IMG/VR virus record: IMGVR_UViG_2698536317_000003
Source: a virus
Lineage: Duplodnaviria; Heunggongvirae; Uroviricota; Caudoviricetes
Length of the DNA stretch: 56,811 bases
Strand: one strand, 5' to 3'
Position 1 is the stretch's first letter, and every line of letters starts with the position of its first letter. The translations under genes and the position numbers were made by a program. Below are positions 13,422 to 56,811 of this stretch, one piece after another. Under the pieces are notes generated by a model. It made no database searches. It was given only the letters and a program-made list of their open reading frames with translations, and was not told the DNA's origin.

Positions 13422-13450
13422 AAACCCCGCGCGAAGCGGGGTTGTTATTA
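13422..13450 (+). terminator. Rho-independent terminator ending the L/M moron
   Basis: CCCCGC-GCGAA-GCGGGG hairpin followed by TTGTTATTA. Confidence 0.6.
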
Positions 13451-21505: not shown

Positions 21506-21570
21506 TTTGTTTTCTCCACATACAAAAAAAATCCCCGGCATCGCGCCGGGGAGTTACAGGAAATAAGAAA

Positions 21571-23082: not shown

Positions 23083-24387
23083 TTAGAAATAAGTGTTAAA
23101 GTCTGGTACTTCGCCTTTTTTACCTTCGCTTGCTGCATTGGTTGCCATCGGCGCGGGTTTGCCCAGGGATTTAAACATCGCTTCTAACGCTTCACCGCTT
23201 AATGCGTTAGCAACAATTTCGCCGTGTACTTTTGCTACTGCGGCGCGTTTTTCTGCTACTTCTTTATTTGCGTTTGCTGCGATCTCTTCTTTGATCGCTT
23301 TCTGGTTGGTCTGCAATTCTTTTTGGTTGGTCTGTAATTCTTCAACGCTTGCCTGTACTGGTTTTAATGCCTCTGCTACTGCATTAGCGATATTAGCGGC
23401 TAAACCTTCGTTAATTTCTTTTACCAGTTCGGCGCGTTCTTCTTTGGTCAAAGGCATGGGATCGTCCTCCGATTTATTGGCCTTAATTTTTTCATTCAGG
23501 GAGAAAAGATTAGAAAGGTGTTCGGCGAACTGAGCGAACCATGATTTACTTTCCTCATTGGTTGCAAGCTCGCCATTATTGAGAATAATTTTATCAGCCT
23601 GTTTCTGGTAGTTGTATTTTTCCGCGTAATTTTTGTTGGTTGCAATTGTCACTTCTTTATCAGTGAAGTCCACAACATAGACATAATCGGCATCAGGAAG
23701 TAATTCACGCGCCGCTTCCGTCAGTTGTCTTTCAAGCGTGCGATAGCTGTTTTCTTTCATTGCCACAGCCATTAAAGGCTTCGCCTGGTCAGTGTTAACC
23801 ATCAGGCCAACGCCCTGCTCTGGCGATGCGGCTGGCGGTTCATGCAGTAAGATAGCGTCATGGTCGATCGACATGATTTTAACAACGCTATCAGCACCCT
23901 GGGCCTTCATCTCTTCAGTAGCTGGCATACGCTGACGATATACGGCTACGGATGACCAGATAGGATCTTTGCTTTCGCCTTTTTCCAGTGCTTCGAGTCG
24001 GCTTAGCAATTCGCGCCCCTGTTCTGAATGGCTGGCGGTTTCAACATCCACCCATTTTTCCACATAAACACGGTTGCCACGTAATTCAACATTTCTGTTC
24101 CATGCACCACAAAAGCCAATATTCAGACCTTCCGGGCTAAATGCGGAAACAAATTCACCGTCAACCGTAGGATGTCCCAGCGGTGCGAGCGTGCCTTCCA
24201 GAGATTGATAATTAGCAATGATTTCAGCTTCCGGGTAATATTCCCGATTCATAACGATATTGAAGGGCAATGTATATGACGGAACAACAATATGCTCACG
24301 CCCGTTATACGTTTCCCGGCGTATGGTGTTAGCGGTTAATTTGGTATTAACCTGAATCAATTCTTTATTCACGATTTTTACTCCCAA
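23083..24387 (-). CDS. Putative prohead protease / scaffolding protein
   Basis: 434-aa ORF between head-morphogenesis and decoration genes; C-terminal coiled coil with in-frame 7-aa duplication ELQTNQK. Confidence 0.45.
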   Translation of the reverse strand: MGVKIVNKELIQVNTKLTANTIRRETYNGREHIVVPSYTLPFNIVMNREYYPEAEIIANYQSLEGTLAPLGHPTVDGEFVSAFSPEGLNIGFCGAWNRNVELRGNRVYVEKWVDVETASHSEQGRELLSRLEALEKGESKDPIWSSVAVYRQRMPATEEMKAQGADSVVKIMSIDHDAILLHEPPAASPEQGVGLMVNTDQAKPLMAVAMKENSYRTLERQLTEAARELLPDADYVYVVDFTDKEVTIATNKNYAEKYNYQKQADKIILNNGELATNEESKSWFAQFAEHLSNLFSLNEKIKANKSEDDPMPLTKEERAELVKEINEGLAANIANAVAEALKPVQASVEELQTNQKELQTNQKAIKEEIAANANKEVAEKRAAVAKVHGEIVANALSGEALEAMFKSLGKPAPMATNAASEGKKGEVPDFNTYF

Positions 24388-30010: not shown

Positions 30011-30346
30011 CAGAATATTCCTCTATCCTGAAAAATATAACCCCCGCAAAACTGGACACCGCAGGGAGTGAAAACAGCTATAAAACACTGAAAACGGCGC
30101 TGCGTGAGTACCGTTTCCAGAATTTTATAAAACTGGACCTGCTCAACATCTCTGGTAAACAGATCCGAACGCTCTTCCTACGCTTGGCAGGTGAGTAATG
30201 GCGCTTTCTTCTACCCAGGTAGCGCCTGACCTGTTAATGGGACTGTTGATCCGGTATTACGTGTTTTTGAATTTCCGCCGTCGCTCGCGGGAAGGATTGG
30301 CCCGGTTATGGCTGGCTAGCAGAAACGGCGACACGTCCACGCGCTG

Positions 30347-30817
30347 TTATTCTTTGCGTAAGCACTGCGTTTTGATGTAGCCCTGAAGCGCGGTTATCTT
30401 CGCGTCTTTCTCTTTTAGTTGTTCTCTGAGGGATAAATAAGATTGTCGAGCAGAGGCATCAAGTTCGCAGGTGGCTCCATCAATGCGGCTGGCGGTTCCG
30501 GCGGGGTCGGACACTCGCACGGGTATTGCGTTGACGCGCAACCGGATAGTACCGTTATCAATGCCAGTGCGCAGATCGGCAATGTCAGATCTGATAGCTT
30601 TAATCTCATCGTGATACCTCTTATCAAGTTTTGACAGTTCGGCGTTTCGCTCCTTCATCTGCTGAATAGTGTTACTTGCCGTTTTCAGTGCGCCTTTCGT
30701 TACCGTGACTTCTTCCTGCAACCTTGCCGCCTCACCCTGGTAATAACATGTTACGGCGGTCAGTCCGGCAATAATGCAAACAACAACGGCGATGATTAAC
30801 GTCTTCACCTTGTCCAT
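30347..30817 (-). CDS. i-spanin (Rz)
   Basis: N-terminal TM plus periplasmic coiled coil; resembles recalled lambda Rz; contains embedded Rz1. Confidence 0.8.
30415..30609 (-). CDS. o-spanin (Rz1), lipoprotein embedded in Rz in another frame
   Basis: MRLKL...VLSGCAS lipobox and proline-rich [23 protein letters not shown] resembling lambda Rz1. Confidence 0.75.
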   Translation of the reverse strand: MRLKLSDLTLPICALALITVLSGCASTQYPCECPTPPEPPAALMEPPANLMPLLDNLIYPSENN

Positions 30818-31296
30818 TTCTCACCCCATTCGCAAACGGCATATTCAACCTCGCGGCGGTTTACCAGGCCTTGCCACTTCTTACCGCCAGCGTATACCCA
30901 GCGTTTAAGCTGTGCGCACGCTTCTGATTTCTTGCCGTCATTGAGTAGCTTTAATAAGGTTGATGTTTTGAAGTTGGTTGCGCCTACGTTATAGGCGAAT
31001 GAATAAAGTGCTGCGCGGGTAAAATCTGATATTTCGACTTTAATATAGGGATCGATAGCTTTTGCGGTTTTATGCAGATCTTTGTTTAACAAAGCATCGC
31101 ATTCTGATTGCGTGTAAGTTTTACCAAGCATGATGTCTTTTCCGGTGTGACCATGACAAACAGTCCACACACCAACAACATCACGATAAGGATCGTACTC
31201 CACGCCCTCTAATGGCTTAATCATCACCGCCGCAATTGCTATCGCCCCACCAGCCGCCGCCGCAACAATCTTGTTTTTCAGCGATTGGCTAATCAT
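30805..31296 (-). CDS. SAR endolysin (phage lysozyme with N-terminal signal-anchor-release domain)
   Basis: N-terminal Gly/Ala-rich TM followed by E...D...T lysozyme catalytic motif. Confidence 0.85.
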
Positions 31297-31497
31297 TTAC
31301 TTGTTCCCCATTCGCGCGTCGTGTTCCTCTTGCGCTCGCTTGTTCTCCTGTGATTTAAAGTAATAATTAACGGCAAATGTGCCTACGGTTGATAAAATAC
31401 CCACAAAGACGGCAATGTCATTGATGGTTATCGCGCCGAAAAAAGCAGTTACGGCCCCAGTCACATACGCGCACGCCTCCCGTATTCTGTCGAACAT
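31297..31497 (-). CDS. Holin (small two-TM, pinholin-like)
   Basis: 66-aa ORF with two hydrophobic helices and charged C-terminus, immediately upstream of endolysin. Confidence 0.75.
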   Translation of the reverse strand: MFDRIREACAYVTGAVTAFFGAITINDIAVFVGILSTVGTFAVNYYFKSQENKRAQEEHDARMGNK

Positions 31498-31504
31498 AGA
31501 TTTT

Positions 31505-31540
31505 CCTCCAACAAAGCAAAAACCCGGCGCGGGGCCGGGT
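31505..31540 (-). terminator. Intrinsic terminator immediately upstream of holin RBS (tR-prime-like position)
   Basis: ACCCGGC-GCGGG-GCCGGGT hairpin followed on the minus strand by TTTTTGCTTTGTT. Confidence 0.55.
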
Positions 31541-31604
31541 AATTACAATTTCGCATTGTTAGGAAATATTTTAATCTGTTTGTTTGCGCTCTACAAATAC
31601 GGCG

Positions 31605-31832
31605 TTAACGATAAGGTCCAAGCAAACGAACAAGCCATTCTTTGTATTTGACGGCAACGTGTTTTGGTGCAAAATATCCTTGCACTTCCTTACCGCCTCG
31701 CCACTCCCTTCTAAATTCGCACTCGTTTTGATACTCCTTTCCGCTTTTACTATCCAGCCAGCAAGCAGGTGAGTAACCTTTTTCACTTCCGAACCGATGC
31801 CATATTGATGACAGTAAAACCCTTTCTTCCAT
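31605..31832 (-). CDS. Hypothetical protein (75 aa, Trp-rich, basic)
   Basis: ATG-initiated ORF upstream of holin terminator; overlaps alternative-frame ORF 31571-31786. Confidence 0.3.
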   Translation of the reverse strand: MEERVLLSSIWHRFGSEKGYSPACWLDSKSGKEYQNECEFRREWRGGKEVQGYFAPKHVAVKYKEWLVRLLGPYR

Positions 31833-32204
31833 ATTGCCCCCCCAACAAATACGGCTTTACGCTGTTCTGTATATCAGTCCGTTATCAAGCAATGTTTGCA
31901 TGTGTTCGCGATCCATGTCGCTTAATTCCCAATAAGGAACATCTTCATTCCTTATCATCACCTCTTCGCCTCTTACCAAATAGGCGATGTCAAATACCTT
32001 ATGCAAATAGATGCCATCTTCGATCTCGTTCATAGGTCGCTAGCCTTTACCAGTTCACCAGCATCAAGAAATATTTTAATTGTTTCTCGCGTCGTCTTAA
32101 TGATTGGCGCTACCCACTCGCCACCGCCAACGCGGATACGAATATCATCGCCTTCTACGCGGTAAAACAGCCTGTCGACTACTGTTGCTGCGTACACGCC
32201 ATCT

Positions 32205-32405
32205 TCAATCATTTTTGCGCTCCTTAATGGCTCGCATGATGTTAATACGCATAGCGTCACTGAATGCGTATATCGTAATGAAAGGCCAGAAGACTAGCTC
32301 GAACCAAATAATGCCGTCACTATCAACAGCTTTCTGAAAAGCGCCCATTAAAATGACACCAGCCAGGTAAATTATAACTACCGCAACAATAATGCATTCA
32401 ATCAT
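32205..32405 (-). CDS. Small membrane protein (MIECIIVAVVIIYLAGVILMGAF...), full-length copy
   Basis: Starts inside 227-bp duplication copy 1 and extends into unique sequence. Confidence 0.4.
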   Translation of the reverse strand: MIECIIVAVVIIYLAGVILMGAFQKAVDSDGIIWFELVFWPFITIYAFSDAMRINIMRAIKERKND

Positions 32406-32529
32406 CTTCACCCCCAAGATCATGATAAATATCGTTAGGGTCTTCACCATGTTCCTCGCAAAAACGCTCAAATAGCGCCCAATTTTCAGAAAGAAACATG
32501 ATTAATAAATTTTTATACCACTCTTCCAT
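32398..32529 (-). CDS. Acidic small protein MEEWYKN...GGEDD (43 aa), copy 1
   Basis: GAGGA RBS; identical copy at 32625-32756. Confidence 0.4.
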   Translation of the reverse strand: MEEWYKNLLIMFLSENWALFERFCEEHGEDPNDIYHDLGGEDD

Positions 32530-32539
32530 TTAATCATCC

Positions 32540-32632
32540 TCAGTCACTATCAACAGCTTTCTGAAAAGCGCCCATTAAAATGACACCAGCCAGGTAAATT
32601 ATAACTACCGCAACAATAATGCATTCAATCAT
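32540..32632 (-). CDS. Truncated small membrane peptide (30 aa) created by the duplication junction
   Basis: Same N-terminus as 32205-32405 ORF, stop created at repeat junction. Confidence 0.3.
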   Translation of the reverse strand: MIECIIVAVVIIYLAGVILMGAFQKAVDSD

Positions 32633-32756
32633 CTTCACCCCCAAGATCATGATAAATATCGTTAGGGTCTTCACCATGTTCCTCGCAAAAACGCTCAAAT
32701 AGCGCCCAATTTTCAGAAAGAAACATGATTAATAAATTTTTATACCACTCTTCCAT
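32625..32756 (-). CDS. Acidic small protein MEEWYKN...GGEDD (43 aa), copy 2
   Basis: Identical to copy 1; start abuts stop of upstream ORF. Confidence 0.4.
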   Translation of the reverse strand: MEEWYKNLLIMFLSENWALFERFCEEHGEDPNDIYHDLGGEDD

Positions 32757-33011
32757 TTAATCATCCTCATCGTCTTCATGTTCAGCCAGGAACTCATCAA
32801 CCACGCGGCAAGTCACTGGCGGGATGTATTCGAAATCATCAGAATCAAGATCAAGCGTCCGGCTGTCGCCGTCATCGTCCAGCGTATTCATCCCTAACTC
32901 ACCGAAAGGGCCATACCCAATATGGCCCAGGTATTCGCATCCAGTAGTAAAGCCAGGGTATTCGCCTTTGCACCAGATCTTGTATAGCTTACTTGATGCG
33001 CTCAATTTCAA
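32757..33011 (-). CDS. Hypothetical protein (84 aa, acidic C-terminus)
   Basis: ORF in small-gene block. Confidence 0.35.
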   Translation of the reverse strand: MKLSASSKLYKIWCKGEYPGFTTGCEYLGHIGYGPFGELGMNTLDDDGDSRTLDLDSDDFEYIPPVTCRVVDEFLAEHEDDEDD

Positions 33012-33312
33012 TTCCCCCTTCTACCCCTTCAGTCATTTTGTATTCCGCAAACAGTTCAGCGCCAAGTAATTCGACATCAGTATCACCAATACCAGGGAAC
33101 GCCAGATAAGCAAAAATAAGGCTTTTAATTCTATTCAGGTCTTCAAGATGGTCTGCATTAAAAGGCGGTTCAGTTACATGGAAGCATTTAACGTGCGCGT
33201 CGTCTTCAGTGGCTACACGGAAACATGCGCCAGGTTGTCCGGCGAATTGCCCTAATGTTTCCTTGCTCGGTAAAGTGCCACGAAAAACTTTAACGCTAAT
33301 AAATTTAGACAT
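32989..33312 (-). CDS. Hypothetical protein (107 aa)
   Basis: ORF in small-gene block. Confidence 0.35.
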   Translation of the reverse strand: MSKFISVKVFRGTLPSKETLGQFAGQPGACFRVATEDDAHVKCFHVTEPPFNADHLEDLNRIKSLIFAYLAFPGIGDTDVELLGAELFAEYKMTEGVEGGIEIERIK

Positions 33313-33315
33313 TTA

Positions 33316-33573
33316 TTATTCTCCTTCATAAAGAATTGCCACCAGTTCGGCATCTGTTAGCGTGTTGTGATCTTTATAAGTACCGTAGCGGGCAACGAAA
33401 GCTATTTCGCCAGCTATTTTCCGCCACATAGGGATAGACTCATTAAAATAGGTATTCTCCATTGCCTCCCTGTACGCCAGTTCATAAAAACGCCCGCTAT
33501 TTACATCTTCAATAACGCGGCTGTATGTGCCATCAACGCTACTAACGCCGCGCCACAGCCTGAACACAACCAT
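33316..33573 (-). CDS. Hypothetical protein (85 aa)
   Basis: ORF in small-gene block. Confidence 0.35.
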   Translation of the reverse strand: MVVFRLWRGVSSVDGTYSRVIEDVNSGRFYELAYREAMENTYFNESIPMWRKIAGEIAFVARYGTYKDHNTLTDAELVAILYEGE

Positions 33574-36462: not shown

Positions 36463-36646
36463 CCCGCTTGTAAATTTTGACAGGCTTAATAGGTATGGCA
36501 GGTAATTCTCCCTCGTTTAATGCGCTTGCCATGCCCAATATTAAACGCGCTTCTGCACCAGTTACTTTTTTACACCATGCACCGCCCGTTTTATCTTCGA
36601 ACAAGATAACAGCAAACTGATCGTTTATTTCCAGCTTATCCATCAT
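36443..36646 (-). CDS. Hypothetical protein (67 aa)
   Basis: Overlaps stop of upstream Q-like gene. Confidence 0.35.
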   Translation of the reverse strand: MMDKLEINDQFAVILFEDKTGGAWCKKVTGAEARLILGMASALNEGELPAIPIKPVKIYKRGDDNEA

Positions 36647-37365
36647 TCACCCCGTGTAACTCGTTTAATTTCGTTATCAGCACGCGCCTCTTCTTTGAAC
36701 AATTCGGCAATGGCGTCTTCATAGAAAGCACGGTATTTCTTCCACCACGTTGATCGGCTTACCGGGAAAACAAGCTGATTAACCGCCTGCCGTACAAGAT
36801 CTACAGGGAAACGCGAGTACCCGCGCCCGCCGCAATGCTGGCACGTTTTGAACACTGGCATTTCCGCCGCTTCACTGGCTGCTTTATCCGGTACTTCGCC
36901 ACGGCCCTTGCATTGTTTACAATGATTGCGAACTGTCCCATGCCCCTTGCATTTTTTGCAAAGGTGTTTTTCTCCGTATTCGTCAAACGTAAATTTATAT
37001 CCGCCGCACTCCATACAAGTTTTTTCCGTCGCGGCGCTTTGGCAATAATCCCGAAACGCGAAAACGGCAACAAGAATAATGAGATCATTGCGTTTGGCCT
37101 CGTCCAGTTCCATAACGTATTCATAATCTTTTGCCATAGCCCTTAAACGCTCTGTAAGCAAAACTACGGCCTTATGTTTTTCGGCTTGTGATAGCTCCAT
37201 CTTTCCCAAAAAAGCGCTATAGCCAAGCTCTACGCGCGATTGCGCCATACCCGCAGCGGTTAGCGCATCCGTCGTATTAAGAGCTTCCGGGGACGTGCCC
37301 CGGCTTTCGTCAGATAATCGCGGTGATTTAGGAAAGTGGAATTTTAGAATGGATTCTAAATTCAT
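36643..37365 (-). CDS. Putative antitermination protein Q-like with four DnaJ-type CxxCxGxG zinc-finger repeats
   Basis: 240-aa ORF downstream of rusA; repeats CMECGGY, CKKCKGHG, CKQCKGRG, CQHCGGRG; assignment tentative. Confidence 0.4.
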   Translation of the reverse strand: MNLESILKFHFPKSPRLSDESRGTSPEALNTTDALTAAGMAQSRVELGYSAFLGKMELSQAEKHKAVVLLTERLRAMAKDYEYVMELDEAKRNDLIILVAVFAFRDYCQSAATEKTCMECGGYKFTFDEYGEKHLCKKCKGHGTVRNHCKQCKGRGEVPDKAASEAAEMPVFKTCQHCGGRGYSRFPVDLVRQAVNQLVFPVSRSTWWKKYRAFYEDAIAELFKEEARADNEIKRVTRGE

Positions 37366-39262: not shown

Positions 39263-39383
39263 AATGCTCTCTCCTTTTAAGGTGATTTCTACGCATTTCA
39301 GCGCTGCCGGATTTTTAAAGAGCATTTTGCTTGCTTGAAGTATACAAAATGGATACGTGTAAACAAGACGAATAGCGCCATTA

Positions 39384-46401: not shown

Positions 46402-46692
46402 TTAATGGTAACGGACTTTATCCAGGGGTTTCCCCCCTAAATGGCGTGGTTGCGTTGCGTGGTAGTAGCTGCCGCTTTCATTTTCCGTATACCATTTTAC
46501 TGATCCTTTGCGACGTTCTTTAATGCTATTTGGTTTGCACCTTTCCTCGTTTGCAAATCGAATAGCTTTATCCACATTGTCTGTTTTATTAATTGCAGGT
46601 GATGATTTTCTTTCGTTTTCTCTTTTTATCCTTCTGCGTTCCCTGGCGTTCATTTTGCTATCACATTTTCCATACATAATTGTAACGCTCAT
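46402..46692 (-). CDS. Arginine-rich N-like putative antitermination protein
   Basis: First gene of leftward operon; N-terminal ARM-like NARERRRIKRENERK; GGAG RBS; downstream of nut-like site. Confidence 0.4.
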   Translation of the reverse strand: MSVTIMYGKCDSKMNARERRRIKRENERKSSPAINKTDNVDKAIRFANEERCKPNSIKERRKGSVKWYTENESGSYYHATQPRHLGGKPLDKVRYH

Positions 46693-46748: not shown

Positions 46749-46786
46749 GCCGCACTTCCAGCGGCTGACCAGATTTTTAATGAGCG
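46749..46786 (-). promoter_or_regulatory. nutL-like site (boxA CGCTCATTAAAAAT plus boxB-like hairpin)
   Basis: Minus-strand reading CGCTCATTAAAAATCTGGTCA-GCCGC-TGGAAGT-GCGGC. Confidence 0.4.
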
Positions 46787-47160: not shown

Positions 47161-47188
47161 GGCAAAGAAAAGCCGCCATCCGGCGGCT
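47161..47188 (-). terminator. Rho-independent terminator downstream of repressor gene
   Basis: AGCCGCC-GGAT-GGCGGCT hairpin followed by TTTCTTTGCC on minus strand. Confidence 0.55.
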
Positions 47189-55436: not shown

Positions 55437-55654
55437 TGGATAAGATCGGGACAATACTTATTAACCGTGAGCAAGTGCAAAAAATGTTAGGCGGGCTTAG
55501 CAAGTCCGCCTTTTTTAAGCTCGTTAAAAAATGGAAAGAAGCGGGAACTCCTTTCCCTGAACCTGTAAAGGGGATGCCAGCATTAAAGCGCGGGGGATCT
55601 CTTTACCGTTATCAGGACGTTATTTCATTTTGTAAATCGATGGGCTTCATGTAG
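55436..55654 (+). CDS. Excisionase-like / small DNA-binding protein
   Basis: 72-aa ORF adjacent to and converging on the integrase gene. Confidence 0.45.
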   Translation: MDKIGTILINREQVQKMLGGLSKSAFFKLVKKWKEAGTPFPEPVKGMPALKRGGSLYRYQDVISFCKSMGFM

Positions 55655-56811
55655 TAATCAGCCAGTTTATTCATCGCCTCGATTTGTTCCCTCACGTAAT
55701 CATATTGATCATAGATAGCCATCATCCCCGCCAGTTTATGACCCAAAACCTTTTCGGCTACGTGCGGCGCAACGCCAAGCGCTGAAAGGTTTGTCCTTAC
55801 AGTGCGGCGTAGATCGTGACACGACCACGGCTCGCCGCCCATCCTTAGCATCAAATCCCTTGCGGCTGTTTTCGGCACGCTCCTGTCTACCGCTTCATCC
55901 CTTCCAGAAAGCACGGGAACGAAGATAAAATTAAAGCCGTGCAAATCCATAGCCTCACGCAATAAATCAACGCTAACGGCAGATAAACCGCGTTTAAACT
56001 CATTTCTGTTCTTACTCAATGCACCCGGCACGGTCCACACACAATTATCAAGATCAAAATGCTCGCGTTTTGCGTTTGTTAGCTCGCTTGTTCTGCATCC
56101 GGTGAATATAATCAGCTTCATCAATATCTGATTTAGCCGCGCCATTTTTGAGCTATCTATAATGCTGATCAGATGGTGAATCTCTTGTATTGATAAAACG
56201 CGCTTCCTTTGCGCCGGGTTTTTGCCAACGTCTTTCACGCGTAGCAATGATATGTCGTCACGCTCCACGCGGCGGCGGCGCATGGCATATTTTATAACCG
56301 CCTTCATCCTGTTTAAGACTATCCCGGCCTGAACGGGCGCGCCACCATTAGCTACCTTTCTAAAAATTCCCTCCCACATTATGGCGTCCATATCATCAAC
56401 AATATAGCTACCGCATGGTTTGACAATATGCTTGCTTAACATCGCTTCGACTTGCTTATGGTTGACCATGTTTCTTGCCTGCGGTGATTCCATATATTCC
56501 CTGACAATATCTTCAACGGTCGCCCGTGTCGTAACGCGGGAAAGGTGCATTCTTTTTACGATCGATGGATCTCGCCCTGAGTTTAATATTTCCTTATGTT
56601 CCGCCACCGCCGCGCGGGCTTCTTTGAGCGTTATTTCTCCGTAAGTGCCAATCTTCATCCGTCGCGGCTTGCCGTTGAATCGGTAGCGATACTGGAAAGA
56701 TATAACGCCGTGCGGGCTTATCCTGGCAGACAATCCGCCCGCGTCCGGGACTTCTTCCGGGCCGTCATATGGCTTGCCGTGGATGTTTCGTAATTTGGTA
56801 TCTGTAAGCAT
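55612..56811 (-). CDS. Tyrosine integrase, P4-type
   Basis: 399-aa ORF with arm-binding N-terminus (MLTDTKLRN...ISFQYRYRFNGK) and C-terminal catalytic domain; 5-prime end at window edge. Confidence 0.9.
   Translation of the reverse strand: MLTDTKLRNIHGKPYDGPEEVPDAGGLSARISPHGVISFQYRYRFNGKPRRMKIGTYGEITLKEARAAVAEHKEILNSGRDPSIVKRMHLSRVTTRATVEDIVREYMESPQARNMVNHKQVEAMLSKHIVKPCGSYIVDDMDAIMWEGIFRKVANGGAPVQAGIVLNRMKAVIKYAMRRRRVERDDISLLRVKDVGKNPAQRKRVLSIQEIHHLISIIDSSKMARLNQILMKLIIFTGCRTSELTNAKREHFDLDNCVWTVPGALSKNRNEFKRGLSAVSVDLLREAMDLHGFNFIFVPVLSGRDEAVDRSVPKTAARDLMLRMGGEPWSCHDLRRTVRTNLSALGVAPHVAEKVLGHKLAGMMAIYDQYDYVREQIEAMNKLADYYMKPIDLQNEITS

Follow-up and report, generated by a model that had tools for sequence, protein, structure and literature searches.

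In phage lambda, RNA polymerases that have been modified by N cross terminators. The late cassette of lambda runs from the Q gene through the promoter PR', the QBE, a sigma-dependent pause element and the terminator tR' (6S RNA) to the lysis genes S-R-Rz (PMC9388147). The binding site of lambda Q spans 13 bp and lies upstream of the pause element; by the time the transcript has reached 15-16 nt the protein is threaded onto it, and its N-terminal segment forms a torus in the exit channel (PMC9388147). The general scheme of Q loading at a pause element has likewise been described for lambda (PMC9388147). In the PR'-tR' unit of Stx phages, with its sRNA StxS, transcription from a constitutive late promoter is stopped just downstream in lysogens and is released by Q (PMC7547250).

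The phages closest to the locus studied here are those of the mEpimmI group ("Nus-dependent non-lambdoid" coliphages), for which early N-like antitermination alone has been studied; the literature that we reviewed does not describe a site of action for their Q-like protein. The terminators of one member, mEp021, and its Gp17 (N-like)-nutL/nutR1/nutR2 system are reportedly the subject of Valencia-Toxqui et al. 2023, Arch Virol 168:92. According to the available part of a 2025 paper (PMC11893012), mEpimmI phages are found among human faecal isolates as often as lambdoid ones, and abgT is one of four attachment loci described for the group. The legend of Fig. 7 in the same paper gives mEp021 t1, t2 and t5 as experimentally demonstrated terminators and t3 and t4 as predicted ones (PMC11893012). 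The available part sets these terminators in early N-type antitermination and mentions a Q-lambda-like protein in passing; it describes no late promoter or Q loading site beside the mEp021 terminator discussed below, and the supplements have no terminator or promoter content (PMC11893012).

We analysed a window of 56,811 nt (IMG/VR record IMGVR_UViG_2698536317_000003), in which the minus strand is the coding strand for most phage genes, including all those treated here. The window is an mEpimmI-group prophage of E. coli and a relative of mEp021, inserted in abgT, since a truncated host abgT transporter gene lies at one end (1-1446) and the tyrosine integrase at the other (55612-56811). Region 30300-33400 is 89-93% identical to mEp010, MagusPhagus, mEp554, mEp044, mEp013, mEp021 and mEp515. 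The lysis and late block begins with a gene for a 66-aa holin (31297..31497; PF16080, E = 1.6e-14; phrog_20), which the endolysin gene abuts without a gap (30805-31296; PF00959); these are followed by the Rz spanin gene (30347-30817; PF03245), with Rz1 embedded in it (30415-30627, from the ORF list), and by terminase, portal and tail genes. On the other side of the holin gene lies a variable array of accessory ORFs, the last of which encodes 75 aa (31605..31832; phrog_23715); homology between the window and mEp021 ends at its stop codon. The array includes a perfect 227-bp tandem duplication (32316-32542 and 32543-32769, 100% identical), which doubles a 43-aa ORF and the 5' part of the neighbouring ORF, and two adjacent small ORFs of 58 and 76 aa (31857-32260) that are tandem paralogues, since both belong to phrog_15318. 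Between the array and the holin gene is a gap of 107 nt (31498-31604); it is the sole sizeable unoccupied stretch, with ORFs packed from the gap that holds the nutR2-like site (see below) to the holin.

An earlier, sequence-only reading had noted a strong hairpin with a U-tract just before the holin ribosome-binding site (RBS), on the coding strand. We found it exactly where that reading had put it: positions 31505-31540 cover precisely the hairpin, its tail and the RBS, and the minus strand reads TTGTAATT ACCCGGC CCCGC GCCGGGT TTTTGCTTTGTT GGAGG AAAATCT ATG. The hairpin ACCCGGC-CCCGC-GCCGGGT (31522..31540) has a 7-bp stem with six G-C pairs, a 5-nt loop and a folding energy of -14.4 kcal/mol (35 nt folded). 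The sequence 3' of the stem is TTTTTGCTTTGT, with a T-run (TTTTT) at 31522-31518 and a U-rich tail, TTTT GCTTTGT, at 31511..31521; RNA release is predicted around 31516-31513. The T-run is 8 nt from the holin Shine-Dalgarno sequence GGAGG (31505..31509), which is the annotated RBS in mEp021 and lies 7 nt before the ATG at 31497, and 24 nt separate the last paired base of the stem from the ATG. Both a G+C-rich hairpin with a short loop and an adjoining 3' U-rich tract, the features of an intrinsic terminator, are therefore present, and the hairpin is unidirectional, because the plus strand reading has no T-tract.

A generic terminator scan of 11 kb found 18 sites against 10 expected, with the hairpin at 31540-31522 ranking top. 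Since this is just an approximately two-fold enrichment, we applied a strict definition (a perfect stem of at least 7 bp, at least six G-C pairs, and a T-run) to the whole 56.8-kb window, which yielded four sites, all on the minus strand, against 0.06 expected per dinucleotide shuffle; 5 of 100 shuffles contained any site. The three further sites are in places where real terminators make sense: after the minor tail protein gene (13424-13442), after a gene for a 349-aa DUF6260 protein in the head/capsid region (21532-21552), and after the CI-like repressor gene (47171-47188), where the site corresponds to mEp021 TERM_1. These results support the hairpin as a functional intrinsic terminator of the coding strand, with termination predicted from the sequence at 31540-31522. 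An Rfam scan of the window detected no family at threshold; the lone sub-threshold match, to the Pseudomonas rnk leader (RF01772; 31510-31643, minus strand; 24.5 bits against a 55-bit threshold, E = 0.034), was taken as chance and likely reflects the shared terminator hairpin alone.

The identical hairpin is annotated in two relatives. In mEp021 (MH706966) it is "TERM_5; score=100", 13 nt upstream of the annotated RBS of a "putative class II holin", and in mEp010 it is "T9", an ARNold prediction; across all seven related phage genomes, identity over the 103 nt that precede the holin is 90-97%, and it is 97% for mEp021. The GenBank features TERM_1 to TERM_5 of mEp021 follow the same order along the early region as t1 to t5, and TERM_5 is the first terminator downstream of nutR2. 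Because the two orders match, mEp021 t5 is probably TERM_5, and hence the hairpin found in the window. The terminator has thus already been annotated in a 97%-identical relative, where it was probably also tested.

Upstream of the hairpin, the gap contains the sequence TTGTAG-17 nt-TAAAAT-ATTTCCT-AACAATG (31596-31554, minus strand). We regard TAAAAT (31568..31573), a 5/6 match that is invariant in 45 relatives, as a candidate late-promoter -10. TTGTAG (31591..31596) is a weak candidate for the -35, with a 3/6 match and a 17-bp spacer, and is not conserved; 12 of the 45 relatives have TCGCGC in its place, and a more distant relative, L097, has AAGCGC. A promoter scan of the region did not list the TTGTAG/TAAAAT site because just three positions of its -35 match. 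When 28.0-40.3 kb was scored with a simple sigma-70 weight matrix, TTGTAG-17-TAAAAT ranked 7th of 12,270 positions; relatives lacking the -35 would not rank high with this matrix.

With the transcription start predicted at A31560, AACAAT, a -10-like hexamer, would occupy +1..+6. Together with the six invariant bases that follow, it forms the block AACAATGCGAAA (31549..31560), and the initial transcribed region thus has, at the level of sequence, the -10-like hexamer expected of a pause element. AACAAT is accordingly placed as AACGAT is in lambda PR' (TTGACT-17-TAAATT-TGACTC-AACGATG), which we take to be the sigma-70-dependent pause element where Q loads; the hexamer begins 7 nt after the -10 in the window and 6 nt after it in lambda. 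AACAAT is therefore a candidate sigma-dependent pause element, at which polymerase would be expected to pause. The spacer block AAACAAACAGAT (31574..31585; also AAACAAAYRGAT and AAACAAAC) is correctly placed, upstream of the pause element, to be the Q-binding element, a role for which we consider it a candidate. Conservation among the relatives starts at this block, and the -35 region and upstream genes differ. In the predicted transcript, the hairpin extends from +21 to +39, and so begins after the 15-16-nt stage at which lambda Q is threaded; the terminated RNA would be ~45 nt long. The motif TAWAWT-N6-7-AAYRATG was defined after the data had been seen, with 0.2 matches expected per window. 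A second match, TAAAATTATTCTCAATAATG (23574-23593, minus strand), lies within a 434-aa ORF (23083-24387) and is probably due to chance.

Two other accounts of the conserved sequence in the gap were considered. AACAATGCGAAA might be invariant because its RNA pairs with UUUUGCUUUGUU downstream, which does not vary either; this helix was proposed by RNAalifold, in a 20-pair consensus structure without covariation. A nut site was rejected, since there is no boxA-like sequence in 31498-31604 (the window's boxA matches are at 46786 and 39324 only) and the hairpin ACAAT-GCGAA-ATTGT loses pairs, uncompensated, in many relatives. The element thus appears to have neither the boxA nor the conserved boxB hairpin of an N/nut-type site.

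We compared the region in 47 sequences: the window, 44 IMG/VR loci, mEp021 and mEp010. The stem arms are identical in 45 of these, with a G-U closing pair in the other two, and the loop occurs in nine variants. A covariation test in the terminator stem was uninformative because the arms never vary; the information is carried by the variable loop set against the invariant stem. Pairwise diversity, computed on the 45 sequences with the 66-aa holin, is 0.000 for both the -10 TAAAAT and AACAATGCGAAA, 0.006 for the stem arms, 0.022 from the tail to the ATG and 0.054 for the spacer AAACAAACAGAT; the corresponding values are 0.124 for the discriminator ATTTCCT, 0.145 for the linker TTGTAATT and 0.23 for the loop, and third codon positions have values of 0.13 in the holin gene and 0.22 in the endolysin gene. 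The predicted functional elements are frozen, whereas intervening positions change about as fast as synonymous sites. At least three unrelated gene ends abut the block upstream among the relatives, and in two loci (L042 and L043) a different holin follows it, so there are mosaic junctions on both sides. The module therefore looks portable, staying fixed beside the lysis genes as the distance to Q, the upstream gene and even the holin vary.

The window encodes an antiterminator of the lambda Q family (240 aa; 36643..37365; PF03589, E = 1.7e-29, 102 bits; phrog_127), which is 34% identical to lambda Q over its full length (E = 3e-47), with the N-terminal segment conserved. An insertion of 31 aa, carrying two additional CxxC pairs and a weak DnaJ_CXXCXGXG-like match, aligns with the zinc-ribbon 'arm' of lambda Q, the part that contacts the DNA site; the same Q subfamily is found in Citrobacter, Serratia and Xenorhabdus prophages. 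A lambda-like late promoter directly after Q was rejected, since the Q stop codon overlaps the start of the next ORF and closely packed ORFs fill the sequence as far as the 107-nt gap. The Q gene is thus not directly before the PR'-like unit, which lies 5,069 bp downstream of it. Among 40 IMG/VR relatives, Q and the core are separated by 3,027 to 6,725 bp, and the spacing between core and holin is fixed. A Q of the lambda family is kept in every relative examined; the Q search in IMG/VR returned the same phage group alone, and more distant Q relatives were taken from the protein database. Q alleles fall into two groups, which share about 95-100% and 85-90% identity with the Q of the window, and we saw no co-variation of allele with upstream (-35 region) type, both groups occurring with both types.

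The window also encodes a homologue of the N-like antiterminator Gp17 (46405..46692), 92.7% identical to mEp021 Gp17 (tblastn), and has a nutR1-like boxA/boxB site at about 46786. A nutR2-like site (39290..39325), consisting of boxA TGCTCTTTAAAAA (39324) and a boxB hairpin, lies 7.8 kb upstream of the terminator hairpin and is a candidate entry point for N-type antitermination by Gp17. Directly upstream of its boxA is a promoter-like sequence, TTGTTT-16-TATACT (39339-39367, minus strand; TTGTTC in mEp021), suggesting that nutR2 may have its own promoter and not be reached from nutR1 alone.

More distant relatives have their own versions of the module. L097 has an overall similar gene order, a Q that is 48% identical, and a 111-nt gap before the holin, in which TATAAT-TCCCTC-AATAATG is followed by 16 nt, a 10-bp hairpin (AAGGCTGGAA-TTG-TTCCGGCCTT) with a run of seven T, 8 nt, and GGGAGG; this terminator is unrelated in sequence to that of the window and has the same position. 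L101, with a 75% identical Q, combines TAAAAT-ATCCTC-AACAATG (a 6-nt interval) with the window's hairpin. In classical lambdoid prophages with Q proteins of the same subfamily, the cores are TAATCT-GAAACC-AATGATGG (L099), and TAATTT-CTTTCT-AACGATGGG and ...GCTCT-AACGATGGG (L103 and L104). Counterparts of the pause-like block are AACGATGG in L103 and L104, AATGATGG in L099 and AATAATGG in L097, and a shared core, CTAACGATGG in L103 and L104 and CCAATGATGG in L099 as compared to CTCAACGATGG in lambda, in each case follows the -10 and precedes the terminator. The window element also partly resembles Q-lambda-type loading sites in sequence (TTTCCTAACAATG versus TTTCTAACGATGG). From these comparisons, we conclude that the window element is homologous in layout, and partly in sequence, to Q-lambda-type loading sites, and has been uncoupled from Q.

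Another conserved noncoding element, at 30075-30132 (minus strand) between Rz and a 183-aa ORF, corresponds to mEp021 TERM_6. It has the form TTTTATAAAATTCTGGAAACGG-loop-CCGTTTTCAGTGTTTTATAG, with invariant flanks TTTATAAAATTCTG and TTTTATA, and in the L097 counterpart both sides of the stem have changed with pairing kept (GAAAACATCA/TGGTGTTTTT). It could be a second terminator of the late operon, or else a regulatory hairpin of another kind. We rejected it (30132-30075) as a Q site: it has a -10-like sequence, TATAAAAT, and the covarying hairpin, but is without an AAYRATG pause-like element.

The 24 nt between the stem and the ATG contain no -10-like hexamer and are filled by the U-tail and the RBS. 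With neither room for a promoter nor a -10-like sequence between hairpin and RBS, holin mRNA must cross the hairpin. A dedicated holin promoter at this position, which would have spoken against the sequence-only reading, is thus absent from the stretch. That reading had likened the locus to lambda tR' and had proposed that lysis is gated by antitermination from a promoter upstream. The likeness is supported by the quality of the hairpin, the conservation of its arms (45 of 47 sequences), the presence of a Q homologue, and the PR'-like -10 with its pause-like element; the proposed gating is also supported at the level of sequence, with read-through as the sole route to the holin and both Q and an N-like Gp17/nut system encoded in the window.

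On balance, we favour the interpretation that the hairpin is the downstream end of a compact late control module of the lambda PR' type, contained in the 107-nt gap before the holin. Promoter activity, pausing, Q binding and Q-dependent read-through are the properties that such a module would be predicted to have. Delayed-early transcription, protected by Gp17 at nutR1 and nutR2, would cross ninG-rusA-Q and the variable array of small ORFs, such that Q is made. Polymerase from the local promoter (TAAAAT, start at ~A31560) would pause as sigma-70 re-binds AACAAT at +1..+6. Without Q, this polymerase would stop at the hairpin after ~45 nt, directly ahead of the holin RBS, and no holin would be made from these transcripts. 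Q positioned on the spacer block would be loaded onto the paused polymerase, which would then read through the hairpin and the later strong terminators of the late operon, leading to expression of the holin, endolysin, spanins, terminase and virion genes. On this view, the hairpin would also be the end of the early operon. The strong terminators inside the late operon (21552 and 13442) mean that a processive antiterminator loaded at the start of that operon would be needed. By analogy with lambda N, Gp17-modified polymerases from nutR2 should also cross the hairpin. It is likely that both routes exist, with the Gp17 route needed to make Q and the Q/local-promoter route accounting for most late transcription. 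Should t5 be this hairpin, the read-through reported in the available part of the mEp021 work is tied to Gp17, not Q (PMC11893012).

An alternative possibility is that there is no local promoter, and that the hairpin does no more than close the delayed-early operon, being crossed by Gp17-modified polymerases from early promoters by way of nutR1 and nutR2, with Q acting elsewhere or reinforcing. This is conceivable, if on the unlikely side. It would fit the presence in the window of the Gp17 homologue and the nutR1- and nutR2-like sites, with a promoter-like sequence just upstream of the latter, the weakness or absence of a -35 before the hairpin, and the inclusion of t5 among the demonstrated terminators on the Gp17/nut map, as given in the Fig. 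7 legend (PMC11893012). However, it leaves unexplained why, in the stretch 20-50 nt upstream of the hairpin, TAAAAT and AACAATG never vary when their neighbours drift at the synonymous rate, and why the layout of -10, N6, AAYRATG and terminator recurs with a different sequence in L097 and, after Q, in classical prophages. Moreover, a conserved Q of the lambda family needs a loading site, and we found no other candidate between Q and the terminase genes. The opposite extreme, a functionless chance inverted repeat, might be suggested by the abundance of generic terminator-like patterns (18 in 11 kb, where 10 are expected), but only 0.06 sites of this quality are expected per window, L097 has a terminator of another sequence at the same position, and near-invariant arms (45/47) around a freely varying loop effectively refute chance; we consider this explanation negligible.

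The hairpin and its complementary flanks might instead act mainly on the RNA once it has been made, either as a 5' stabiliser of the lysis mRNA or as a long helix that hides the holin RBS in transcripts started upstream but not in those from +1. Minimum-energy and consensus folds do extend the terminator, pairing CUAACAAUGCGAAA with UUUUGCUUUGUUGG and UUCC with the Shine-Dalgarno sequence; Z-scores range from -4.2 to -5.4 in the window, L101 and L097, and all three have a pyrimidine-rich segment resembling an anti-Shine-Dalgarno sequence upstream of the predicted start. Nonetheless, covariation is absent (0 of 20 pairs changed on both sides), and the single candidate pair that varies, T/A at 31564 with A/T at 31504, was scored in 27 of 31 unique sequences, with 13 matches and 14 mismatches. 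Long and short RNAs show no consistent difference in predicted accessibility of the Shine-Dalgarno sequence, and the same pyrimidine-rich discriminator is found in lambda, L103 and L104, whose holin RBS lies hundreds of bases from it; in any case, a perfect GC stem with a U-run suffices for termination. Anti-Shine-Dalgarno pairing that makes holin translation dependent on the start site was rejected as inconsistent among the relatives, the pyrimidine-rich discriminator being general to Q-lambda-type sites. We consider an RNA-level role of this kind very unlikely. More speculatively, and also improbably in our view, the module could serve in lysogens as a constitutive gene for an sRNA of ~45 nt (AACAAUGCGAAAUUGUAAUU, hairpin and U-tail), in which the invariant dozen bases at the 5' end would be a regulatory seed, by analogy with StxS; the terminator would then be at once the early-operon end, the Q gate and the 3' end/Hfq handle of the sRNA, with a 'split' Q cassette spanning the hypervariable array.

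Under the favoured interpretation, that of a compact PR'-type module, the likely Q loading site and late promoter fall within the 107 nt before the holin, which provides a map of the lysis/late switch. If this is true, a Q gene and its target need not adjoin. New with respect to the literature that we reviewed are the pause-element module by the terminator, its extreme compactness, and the variable array of 3.0-6.7 kb between Q and its presumed target; otherwise, this would be textbook lambda-style regulation, ordinary in kind, with a modest architectural twist.

The window shares its region and its hairpin with mEp021, a member of the same group, in which the hairpin is identical, the region is 97% identical and the place before a class II holin is the same; Gp17 (93%) and the nut sites are also common to the two. 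With the lambda cassette it shares a Q protein of family PF03589 (34% identity, including the N-terminal torus segment), a -10 followed after 6-7 nt by a -10-like AAYRATG element at +1..+6, an intrinsic terminator between the (in the window, candidate) promoter and the holin, and downstream lysis and morphogenesis genes with more terminators to read through. The two differ in that Q is 5.07 kb from the module in the window (3.0-6.7 kb in relatives), past packed small ORFs, but about 65 bp in lambda; that the -35 is weak and not conserved, unlike that of lambda; that the terminated RNA is predicted to be ~45 nt, as compared to 194 nt; that the terminator tail is 8 nt from the holin RBS, rather than several hundred; and that the window's Q has the insertion of 31 aa and the extra CxxC pairs in its zinc-ribbon arm. 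The short terminated RNA of the Stx-phage unit, with its hairpin and U-tail, resembles the RNA predicted for the window; unlike in the window, the Stx-phage module adjoins Q, and stx and several kb follow before the holin (PMC7547250). The classical lambdoid prophages L099 (Citrobacter), L103 (Serratia) and L104 (Xenorhabdus), whose Q proteins are 32-41% identical to that of the window, have the core after the -10 and a terminator 30-80 nt downstream, as in the window, whereas their modules lie 45-65 nt after the Q stop codon, with a good -35 (TTTACA, TTTACT, TTGACA) and the holin 0.5-0.9 kb farther on. Indeed, in every characterised Q cassette Q adjoins the module, and in the window it does not. 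Judged by its sequence, then, the window element would work like lambda PR'-qut-tR': of the canonical features of a Q cassette, one, the adjacency of Q, is missing, the -35 matches at 3/6 positions, and the rest are present.
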